Positions 35,064 to 47,540 of a DNA stretch of 64,000 nt are shown one piece after another (position 1 is the stretch's first letter; each line of letters starts with the position of its first letter). The DNA lies in contig OZ252299.1 in assembly GCA_965250285.1 (NCBI GenBank), forward strand, positions 5,696,001 to 5,760,000, in the 5' to 3' direction. This stretch comes from Myxococcota bacterium (GTDB lineage Bacteria > Myxococcota_A > UBA9160 > UBA4427). The notes beneath the pieces were generated by a model that saw nothing but the letters and a program-made list of their open reading frames with translations, was not told where the DNA came from and ran no database searches. Both the position numbers and the translations under genes were made by a program.

Positions 35064-36134
35064 ATGGGACTGCACCCGCTCATCGAGCTGTCGGAAGACC
35101 GCGAAGTGCGGCAGGCGAAGGGCTTTCGTGCTCGCGCCGCCGAACTGAACGGCGCGGCGCTCGAGGCCGACTACGAGGCCGAGAAGCGAAACGCGCCGAG
35201 CCGCGCGGCCGAGGGCAAGAAGTACCTCGGGCAGAAGAACGTACGGATTCCGTCCGCCCCGCAGAAGGGCAAGGACGATCGACATCTCTCGCTCGCGACC
35301 TCCGCATTCATTGCCGCGGGCGGGGCGTCACCCGAGCTGCCGAACGGCGACGAGCTGACGGTGCTCGACGCGATGGTGCCGCTGCGCACCGCCGCGCCTG
35401 ACAAGGCCAAGGGTGACTCGGATCCGAACAAGGGTGTCGATGACATCGATCTGCTGGGCCTGCTGCCCGACGGCCGACCGGCGGTGGTGTGCGTGCGCTA
35501 TTTGGCGCCCGATGCGACGCGCGGTGGCGCCGGTGACACACCCCTGCGTGCGTTGCTGCGCGGCCTCGCGCTCGTCGCGATGGTCGACGGCAACAAGGAA
35601 GAGCTCGGCGCCGAGATCGAGGAGAAGGCGGGTCGCCCGACCGACAAGGAGCAGGCACCGGCGCTCATCATCGCGGGCGCGCCCCGCTACTGGGAGCTGT
35701 GCCGCAAGCGAGAGGCGCAGAAGGGCGCGGCGTGGATTCGCGAGATGGAGCGCCTCGGGCGCGAGATCTCGGAGCAGATCGGCGTCGAGGTGCTCTTCGT
35801 GTCGTGGGATCTCGATGGCAATCCGCCCTGGAGCTACGGCGAAGGCGGTCCGGTTCTGAACGAACCCTTCGGCTTCAAGGCCGCGTGGGAATCGGGAGCC
35901 GGCAAGCTCAAGCCGAAGCCCAAGGCGAAGAAGTCCGCGCCCACGGTCGAGATCATCGAAGCCGATCCGTCGAAGCCGGTGCGTTCGTACAACATGCGCG
36001 AGTCGTATGAGCCGGGCGATGCCATCGATCACCCGACGCTCGGTCAGGGCGTCGTCCAGGCCGTGACCGGCCGCGGCAAGATCGCCGTCCGCTTCGGCGA
36101 AGAGACCAAGCCGCTCATTCACGAGCGCGCCTGA
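35064..36134 (+). CDS. Hypothetical protein: degenerate PD-(D/E)xK-like domain plus C-terminal UvrD/PcrA-type Tudor domain
   Basis: VPLR...GVDDIDLLGL...AVVCVRY...GDTPLRALL; C-terminus YEPGDAIDHPTLGQGVV...KIAVRF; GGGAG RBS. Confidence 0.7.
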   Translation: MGLHPLIELSEDREVRQAKGFRARAAELNGAALEADYEAEKRNAPSRAAEGKKYLGQKNVRIPSAPQKGKDDRHLSLATSAFIAAGGASPELPNGDELTVLDAMVPLRTAAPDKAKGDSDPNKGVDDIDLLGLLPDGRPAVVCVRYLAPDATRGGAGDTPLRALLRGLALVAMVDGNKEELGAEIEEKAGRPTDKEQAPALIIAGAPRYWELCRKREAQKGAAWIREMERLGREISEQIGVEVLFVSWDLDGNPPWSYGEGGPVLNEPFGFKAAWESGAGKLKPKPKAKKSAPTVEIIEADPSKPVRSYNMRESYEPGDAIDHPTLGQGVVQAVTGRGKIAVRFGEETKPLIHERA

Positions 36135-43045: not shown

Positions 43046-43191
43046 CCGGTCGTGCCGGCTTCGGACGTGCGCGCCGCGATCCGGTCGTGCCGGCTTCGGA
43101 CGTGCGCGCCGCGATCCGGTCGTGCCGGCTTCGGCGATGCGCGCGCCGATCCGGTCGTGCCGGCTTCGGCGATGCGCGCCCCGATCCGGTC
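43046..43191. repeat. 35-bp tandem repeat, 4 copies plus a partial
   Basis: CCGGTCGTGCCGGCTTCGG(ACG/CGA)TGCGCGC...CGAT at 43046, 43081, 43116, 43151; partial at 43186; no spacers. Confidence 0.95.
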
Positions 43192-43261
43192 TGACGCGCA
43201 CCGATCGCAGCCGCCACGGGGCGAGCTACGCTCGAAGGCGAGCCCCCGACGAGGAGTGCGG

Positions 43262-44485
43262 ATGGAACCCGTGAGCTGGTTCGAAGACGCGATCGTGCCC
43301 GTCCGAGCCGATATCGGCGAGGCCCACGCCGAGTACTGGCGTCGTCTCGCTGCGCCCGGCACGTGGTGGACGGGCGCCGAGCGCGTCGCCATCGCAGCGG
43401 AGAGCCGCGCGGCGCTCGACTGCAAGCTGTGTCGCGAGCGCAAGGTCGCGCTCTCGCCGAACTCGGTCGTCGGTGAGCATGACACCGCGCCGGGTTCGAC
43501 CGAGTGCCTTCCGTCGGCAGCCATCGACGCCGTCCACCGCATCGTGACCGACGCCGCGCGCCTGTCTTCGGGCTTTCTGCGCAGCATCGAGAGCGAGGGG
43601 GTCGACGACGGGCGCTACGTCGAGCTCGTCGGGATCGTCGTCGCCATGATCAGCATCGACGAGATGGCGCGGGGTGTCGGCGCACCGCTCGCGCCCTTGC
43701 CCGAGCCGATCCCGGGTGAGCCGACCCGCAAGCGACCCGACGAGGCCAAGCCCGACGGCGCGTGGGTGCCGATGCTCCCCGAGTCACAGCCCAAGGGTGA
43801 GAACGCCGATCTCTGGCCCCGCGGCGCAAACGTCATCCGCGCGATGAGCCTCGTGCCGAATGCGGTGCGCGATCTCAAGCTGCTCTCGGCCGTGCACTAC
43901 CTGCCGATGGAGCAGGTCATCGACATGTCGCAGGGCGGCATCATGTCGCGCCCGCAGATGGAGCTCGTGGCGGGCCGCGTCAGCGCCCTGAACGAGTGCT
44001 TCTACTGAACGTCTTCACACGCGATGATGCTCCGTGCGAGCGTCGAGATGGATGGCGGTGAGGTCGATCTGAATGCGGTGACGAAGCCCGGCGAGGATCC
44101 GGGTGAAGCGCTCGAGGGCGCGACCGAGCTCCTTGCGTTCGCCGACGCCATGGTCGGGCGTGACGAGGCCGAGCTGGACCAGGCGCGACGAGCACTGATC
44201 GACCGCCTGGGTGCCGAGCAATTCGTCGAAGCGGCGGCCGTGGTCGCCAACTTCCAGCGCATGGTGCGCATCGCCGATGCGACGGGCATCCCGCTCGACG
44301 GCATCGTGATGACGATGACCGACGACTTTCGCGGCGAGCTCGGCATCGATGCCTTCGAGGGCGCGGCGCGATCGAAGCCGGTCGGCGTCGTCGGGAAGGT
44401 GACCGCTCCGCTGCTGCGCGGTTTCTTCAAGCGGGTGATGCCGCGGCTTGCGAAGCGGATGGCGCCGGGCCCGGTCGAGCGCTGA
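43262..44485 (+). CDS. AhpD/CMD-like alkylhydroperoxidase-related selenoprotein (Sec at UGA 44006-44008)
   Basis: The ORF ending ALNECFY-TGA is in frame with the next ORF. Read-through gives ELVAGRVSALNECFYUTSSH, matching the AhpD NxCxxCxxxH motif. GAGGAG RBS at the start. Confidence 0.8.
44009..44050 (+). promoter_or_regulatory. Putative bacterial SECIS element
   Basis: Stem GATGCTC/GAGCGTC (44026-44044) with loop CGTGC containing GU, 24 nt after the UGA. Confidence 0.7.
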
Positions 44486-46949: not shown

Positions 46950-47540
46950 TCAGGTGGCATCGCGGCATAGGATGAAGGTGCCGATCACCTTCTTCTCGCG
47001 CTTGTGGGCCTGGCCGATCGACACGTGGGACGAGACGCGGCGCATGTAGTCGCGGGTCTCGAAGTACACGAAGCGCTGCAGCCCCTGGCGGTTCGGTCGC
47101 ACGGGCGGCCAGCTGGTTGCGACCTCGGCGTCGGGCACCATGTAGTAGTCGACGACGATTGCGCCGCGGGAGTCGCCGGCTTCGGTCTCATGCGCCACGA
47201 AGTAGCCGGGCCCGATCAGGGGGCGACTCGGCCCCTCGTTGAAGCCGAACAGCCGCGACCCGTCGCCCGCGGGTCGGCAGAATCGCTTCTCGAAGAGCTT
47301 GAACGCCGGCAGACTGTTGCGGCCGAAGTGGACGACCTCGTCCCGGGCCGCCGTGTCGCTCGGCACGAAGAACGAGAGATCGAGCGGCGGACTCGATGCG
47401 GCGCATTCGAACAGTCGCCGCTGATCGGCCCCGCCGAGGGCTTGCGTCTCCGCCCGGCGCCTGGCCGGGTCGAGCGCATCGAGGTGCGCCGAGATCTCGT
47501 CGATCTTCGCGTCACCTCGCACGAGCGATTCGAGCGACAC
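46950..47540 (-). CDS. Hypothetical protein
   Basis: GTG start with GAGGAG RBS; typical codon bias; GRNSLPAF, GPGYFV, DYMRRVS. Confidence 0.75.
   Translation of the reverse strand: MSLESLVRGDAKIDEISAHLDALDPARRRAETQALGGADQRRLFECAASSPPLDLSFFVPSDTAARDEVVHFGRNSLPAFKLFEKRFCRPAGDGSRLFGFNEGPSRPLIGPGYFVAHETEAGDSRGAIVVDYYMVPDAEVATSWPPVRPNRQGLQRFVYFETRDYMRRVSSHVSIGQAHKREKKVIGTFILCRDAT

Follow-up and report, generated by a model that had tools for sequence, protein, structure and literature searches.

The locus studied here raises a simple question: does an in-frame TGA end a gene, or is it read as selenocysteine (Sec) in the middle of a longer one? Within the window, the whole 64,000-nucleotide stretch of DNA that was analysed, positions 43262-44485 of the + strand form one continuous frame, interrupted by one TGA, at 44006-44008. 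The initial annotation had noticed that a first ORF ends NECFY-TGA and that the next continues in frame, and the sequence bears this out, with the next ATG at 44024, in frame and 15 nt past the TGA. Read through, the frame consists of 248 codons, the TGA, 158 further codons and a terminal TGA, giving a protein of 407 aa with Sec at residue 249 (U249), and the AhpD/CMD active-site pattern N-x-C-x-x-U-x-x-x-H that had been proposed for it is present as N244-E-C246-F-Y-U249-T-S-S-H253. The features discussed below are as follows.

43251..43256, + strand: RBS-like GAGGAG in the sequence, 5 nt upstream of the ATG, a start that agrees with the 248-aa length of the public gene call
43262..44485, + strand: full coding sequence, 407 aa with U249, a member of NF041238 (AhpD_rel_CFYUT), residues 14-366 aligned to model positions 1-356 of 357 at 467 bits
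43298..43756, + strand: N-terminal AhpD-like lobe, residues 13-165, without selenocysteine (its own predicted fold, pLDDT 94; Foldseek)
43421..43432, + strand: C54-K-L-C57, half of a putative Cys2His2 metal site with H73 and H92
43478-43480 and 43535-43537, + strand: codons of H73 and H92, the other ligands of the putative Cys2His2 metal site
43757..44341, + strand: C-terminal AhpD-like lobe, about residues 166-360, which holds the catalytic motif (6k40, E 4.8e-13; fold matches)
43997..44020, + strand: motif C246-F-Y248-U249-T-S-S-H253, which together with E234 is spaced like the relay residues of AhpD-type proteins
44006..44008, + strand: in-frame TGA, predicted Sec codon (TGA in 121/122 distinct homologous motifs)
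44026..44044, + strand: predicted bacterial SECIS, a 7-bp stem with loop CGUGC from 24 nt past the UGA (conserved among homologues)
44387..44461, + strand: basic C-terminal helix, residues 376-400, beyond the NF041238 model (9 K/R against 1 D/E after residue 370)

A search of the gene's strand for a sigma-70 promoter and a terminator found neither. The gene is flanked by a divergent FAD-binding oxidoreductase gene and a convergent Coq4-like gene, followed by an SDR gene. Between the Sec gene and the divergent FAD-oxidoreductase gene lies a 35-bp tandem repeat (window 43046-43191, 4.2 copies, 95% matches); short blastn found one partial match elsewhere in the genome (G000:C1:127027), so the repeat does not belong to a genome-wide REP-like family. 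Two nearby ORFs, at 46950-47540 (- strand, 196 aa) and 35064-36134 (+ strand, 356 aa), had no Pfam match at E<=0.001. The basic C-terminal helix (44387-44461) is found in most close relatives of the Sec protein and is missing from some NF041238 members; speculatively, it could serve as a membrane tether.

When the read-through protein was searched against NCBIfam, it matched NF041238 with 467 bits against a curated cut-off of 175 over nearly the full length of the model, and it carries the CFYUT (CxxU) motif that characterizes this family as C246-F-Y-U249-T. Searched singly, the two halves match NF041238 only, at the adjoining model positions 1-238 and 245-356. This family corresponds to the Sargasso Sea "hypothetical protein 1" (2005), and a 2026 review lists it as a predicted selenoprotein only. 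The frame at 43262-44485 is thus one more member of a curated, published family first reported in 2005, in keeping with the earlier remark that AhpD-like selenoproteins are known. The generic AhpD models all miss their cut-offs (TIGR00777, 13.9 against 191.95; TIGR00778, 23.3 against 27.8; TIGR01926, 32.1 against 81.8), and PF02627 is likewise sub-threshold for the read-through protein (19.5 against 23). Judging by its residues, the NF041238 member appears to work like AhpD, yet it falls outside the TIGR00777, TIGR00778 and TIGR01926 families.

All the Sec machinery genes that the initial annotation had suggested looking for are present in the genome, over cut-off and without internal stops: selA (492 bits), selB (317), selD (281) and tRNA-Sec (selC, 62.6). 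The selD match (L010, G000:C1:5312234-5313154) is part of an open frame of 781 codons, which is extended far at the N-terminus and contains a CGGC motif, and which looks similar to the Ndh-SelD fusions mentioned in PMC2398784. The genome has three NF041238 paralogues, two besides 43262-44485, with one TGA each. A fourth match (L023) was rejected: it encodes a small protein resembling CMD, for which TGA is the normal stop.

The family occurs in 40 of the 301 genomes searched from the phylum, every one of the 40 within the class of the window. There are 55 matches over the cut-off in these 301 genomes, and 54 of them contain one TGA, in all 54 at the motif, while a contig end truncates the remaining match. 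All 39 other carrier genomes have selA (39/39), as do 13 of the 18 non-carriers of the same class that were tested, with 5 lacking it; selA is absent from 5/57 tested genomes, all 5 of which are also without the family, and because the carrier genomes are kin these co-occurrence counts are not independent. In a GTDB sample made up of the best 80 of 545 loci, with record titles that include Gammaproteobacteria, Myxococcota and Binatia among others, the motif has TGA in 79/80 and CGA in one. Two loci yielded no motif (L125 and L127, the latter stopping at a contig end), and an ACA match of the regular expression in L126 was dropped as it lies outside the family gene. Pooled and de-duplicated, the homologous motifs have TGA in 121/122 and never TAA or TAG. 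A real stop would be expected to drift to TAA or TAG and to lose the histidine behind it, so the retention of both the TGA and the catalytic His argues that this is not one. The CGA (Arg) at the Sec codon belongs to L112:4688 (P0015), where the SECIS stem is still present, and may be an artefact of assembly or a mutation that has recently inactivated the gene. Paired copies of the family were also seen, L130 and L132 each having a tandem pair separated by about 1.1-1.2 kb and L032 a convergent pair.

At the protein level, 116 of the best 120 database relatives stop at C-[FY]-[YF], three are full-length with Cys at the Sec position and one is full-length with Arg. An in-frame UGA kept among homologues, with an apparent Cys in 3/4 of the full-length database proteins, is what is expected of a bacterial selenoprotein. 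The suspicion that gene callers would split this protein was well founded, as the public record P0002, 100% identical, is only 248 aa long and represents a truncated gene call. Since those 116 relatives end exactly at the Sec codon, the database entries for a widespread family lack half of the catalytic lobe.

It is very improbable that the TGA is a genuine stop, an error or a nonsense mutation confined to one strain, which would make the region a pseudogene or a pair of genes encoding 248 and 153 aa: gene callers do split the locus, the in-frame ATG follows after 15 nt and some start codon stands within 10 codons in 88/121 homologues, but an ATG is there in only 63/121 and an SD-like 4-mer in 1/121, the TGA is kept, the downstream frame stays open for a median of 150 codons with the catalytic His253 past the TGA, and no other letter was seen at the codon in contigs of three runs (X1-X3, all of one study and possibly the source of the assembly). 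A genome-wide code with UGA as Trp is ruled out, as the Sec gene and many of its relatives end in TGA and the sole tRNA with a UCA anticodon is tRNA-Sec. From these comparative sequence data we conclude that UGA 44006-44008 almost certainly encodes selenocysteine.

A SECIS-like hairpin had been proposed downstream of the UGA. Its 7-bp stem pairs 44026-44032 with 44038-44044 around the loop CGUGC at 44033-44037 (-8.5 kcal/mol), which agrees with the stem and GU-containing loop of the proposal; the distance of 24 nt given there runs from the UGA to the loop, and the stem starts after 17 nt. The published model of the bacterial SECIS has a loop of 3-9 nt, a stem of 4-16 bp, a distance of 16-37 nt from the UGA, a minimum free energy <= -7.5, and, among the first two loop nucleotides, a G that precedes G or U (PMC13188914 Fig. 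2A). With a 5-nt loop CGUGC, 7 bp, 24 nt and -8.5 kcal/mol, the hairpin lies within this model on every count. As a single sequence its folding is unremarkable (z -1.49 to +0.13, in windows starting one base into the TGA), and a crude SECIS filter lets through 1344/8593 of the genome's TGAs located behind long open frames, so the evidence for the hairpin is its conservation. In 33 homologues, 98.7% of stem cells are paired, compared with 27-57% in slid controls, and the same stem was recovered unprompted by RNAalifold. One compensatory pair was found among these 33 (CG in 22, AU in 10, GC in 1), with a covariation score matched by 0/500 shuffles, though this covariation consists of only one pair changed on both sides among related sequences. 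All 121 homologues (121/121) have the four core pairs intact and a G at loop position 2, followed by U (82) or G (39). Constraint on silent sites is also apparent, with a Leu codon that is CTC in 119/121, compared with 48% elsewhere in these genes, and a loop Arg that is never CGC (0/108), compared with 55% elsewhere in these genes.

The AlphaFold model of the read-through protein has a pLDDT of 95.1 and a pTM of 0.94, and predicts a single chain in which two AhpD-like lobes are joined so as to imitate a dimer of the 2prr/6k40 type, as in sestrins. The C-lobe is related to AhpD-core proteins by sequence (6k40, E 4.8e-13), with peroxidase-related proteins leading the profile matches. When the N-lobe was modelled alone (pLDDT 94), Foldseek ranked 2prr and 6k40 first, with prob 1.0, a TMq of about 0.55 and an E of about 0.01; at E<=0.001 Foldseek gave no match for either the full or the N-lobe model. 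Human Sestrin2 heads a fold search of 48,161 chains (Z 16.3, rmsd 3.4, 239 aligned, covering model residues 1-344 at 8% identity), and single-lobe proteins rank below it at Z 11-12.6, including the C-lobe matches 2pfx (Z 12.6), 3lvy (Z 12.2) and 2gmy (Z 11.2); these values should be read with the caution that helical proteins can reach about Z 13 by chance. Aligning the two halves with hhalign gave a weak duplication signal (probability 4.8%, P 0.008) that places C54/C57 in register with C246/U249.

In the C-lobe, C246, Y248, H253 and E234 are invariant in 36/36 rows, and the protein has what marks an AhpD-type site, a CxxC-type pair with a Glu/Tyr/His relay in a helix-turn-helix motif. The second cysteine of the AhpD pair is the attacking one, and a Sec at that position would fit. 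Mapped by spacing and alignment, E234/C246/Y248/U249/H253 correspond to Glu74/Cys86/Tyr88/Cys89/His93 of YP_296737.1, as numbered in the available text of PMC4674687, where the attacked cysteine of AhpD is described as going to a sulfenic acid that its neighbour resolves to a disulfide. We propose that SelB with Sec-tRNA would bind the hairpin directly past the UGA, as in established bacterial Sec biology, and that in the finished protein the U249 selenolate of the C-lobe would attack an organic hydroperoxide or the disulfide of a partner. The U249 intermediate could then be resolved by C246 to a selenenyl-sulfide, with E234, Y248 and H253 relaying protons, and a reductant would recycle the U249/C246 site. 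Given that the UGA is Sec, reductase chemistry like that of AhpD is likely on the strength of these residues, and the reading as a whole, in which this is a Sec-read NF041238 protein that serves as an AhpD-type peroxide or disulfide reductase, we regard as probable. Neighbourhood clustering of 80 loci found no conserved partner gene or AhpC-like partner; the commonest recurring neighbours, recognised by eye, were an SDR (~7 loci), an acyl-CoA ligase-like ORF (~7) and a selB-like ORF (4). The selB-like ORF lies within 4 kb of the family gene in these 4/80 GTDB loci (L075, L096, L099 and L130) and, by eye, has a GTPase N-terminus.

The second CxxC that had been pointed out in the N-terminal half, CKLC, is indeed there as C54-C57, but a role as half of a metal site seems likelier for it than one as a second redox centre. 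C54, C57, H73 and H92 are invariant in 82/82 long-type proteins, and D97, E121 and D133 are further invariant N-lobe residues. The CCHH set is complete in 107/123 rows, and about 11 rows are without the CxxC and both histidines together, a joint loss of C54/C57/H73/H92 that may have been a single event. A His-to-Cys swap was seen by alignment in 3/123 rows, one row lacks C57 and H73, and one is apparently frameshifted. Joint loss and His/Cys exchange are the usual pattern of metal ligands, and for this reason a zinc site is favoured over a second redox centre. The CxxC, in register with the Sec site, would likely bind a metal such as zinc together with H73 and H92, an arrangement that the short subtype appears to manage without. 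This subtype keeps CFYU and the SECIS and has lost the N-lobe CxxC and both histidines (L022, at G000:C1:3185751-3186734, L141, L144 and L146-L153); L022 is a paralogue in the genome of the window, and several genomes hold long and short types together. It is possible, if doubtful, that the N-lobe CxxC instead passes electrons to the Sec site, as its register with C246/U249 means that it probably derives from a duplicated active site; it is, however, without the +4 His of the AhpD motif, and its loss along with two distant histidines and the His-to-Cys swaps speak against such a role. A zinc site is somewhat the better reading of the N-lobe residues.

The main chemical rival accepts a selenoprotein whose chemistry would resemble that of Bmp8, a debrominase of AhpD fold: it would dehalogenate reductively or reduce some other small molecule; Sec deiodinases offer an analogy for Sec-based dehalogenation. 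In the wide fold search Bmp8 (6ohi) ties for second place at Z 12.6 (rmsd 3.0, 174 aligned), the three paralogues in the genome suggest a variety of substrates, and debromination by Bmp8 has been proposed to proceed via cysteine oxidation to a disulfide (available text of PMC5577590). Bmp8 is nevertheless not among the sequence-profile matches, which peroxidase-related proteins lead, and no recurring halogenase neighbours are among the clusters listed, so that a function of this kind, argued by analogy, appears unlikely next to the AhpD-type reductase.

The likeness to Sestrin2 could suggest a mainly regulatory protein with two functions, a redox Sec lobe and a lobe for metal or ligand sensing or for partner binding. 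Sestrin2 does head the fold search and covers both lobes, and the N-lobe has invariant residues of its own (C54, C57, H73, H92, D97, E121 and D133). Against this, identity to Sestrin2 is 8%, the sestrin Pfam family was not found at E<=1 in any of 36 members, the redox lobe sits at the opposite end (C-terminal, against N-terminal in sestrin), and a subtype exists without CCHH. The electronegative DDYDY hinge that stands in place of a helix in the sestrin C-lobe (available text of PMC11429811) is missing, and the C-lobe has an intact CxxU helix-turn-helix. Sestrin membership fails for the NF041238 protein. Bacterial proteins in which an AhpD dimer is fused and the C-lobe holds the active pair have also already been published, in the same available text, so the architecture is of a known kind. 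All told, we consider a mainly regulatory protein improbable. A bolder idea, also unlikely, is that the NF041238 proteins are bacterial mirror-image sestrins, single-chain AhpD pseudo-dimers with a Sec peroxidase lobe and a zinc Cys2His2 sensor or regulatory lobe derived from a duplicated CxxC. If true, a widespread and routinely truncated family would gain a second function, and there would be a bacterial model for the sestrin split of catalysis from sensing. In the literature, mostly openly readable main texts, we found neither a sestrin-like two-lobe fold nor a metal site stated for NF041238. To the AhpD-type selenoprotein that we favour, the candidate metal site and a predicted fold like that of sestrin add modestly, and they offer concrete residues to test.

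Comparison with known systems places the protein as follows. With Bmp8 (PDB 6ohi) it shares the fold of a lobe (Z 12.6) and would share cysteine redox chemistry, whereas Bmp8 is a single lobe with no sequence-profile match, and its biosynthetic context was not seen at the Sec locus. Sestrin2 (PDB 5cuf), described in the available text of PMC4674687 as a duplicated YP_296737.1 (2prr) monomer, and E. coli YciW (available text of PMC11429811) are pseudo-symmetric two-lobe proteins with one redox and one diverged lobe, as is predicted here. Unlike in Sestrin2, the redox lobe is the C-terminal one and holds Sec, the CCHH set is in the other lobe, and identity is 8% with no sestrin Pfam match; the likeness to Sestrin2 and YciW is one of architecture only. 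The peroxidase-related proteins with an AhpD core (TIGR01926; PDB 6k40, 2oyo, 2pfx and 2prr) and M. tuberculosis AhpD (1gu9) share the sequence, fold and Glu/Cys/Tyr/Cys/His spacing of the C-lobe, but each consists of one lobe of about 190 aa bearing CxxC, where the NF041238 protein has two fused lobes with CxxU. Compared with the NF041238 model, the protein has about 40 extra C-terminal residues, common to many relatives and no defining difference, and it is like the family in its full-length match, its CFYUT motif, its single Sec in CxxU and its bacterial SECIS.
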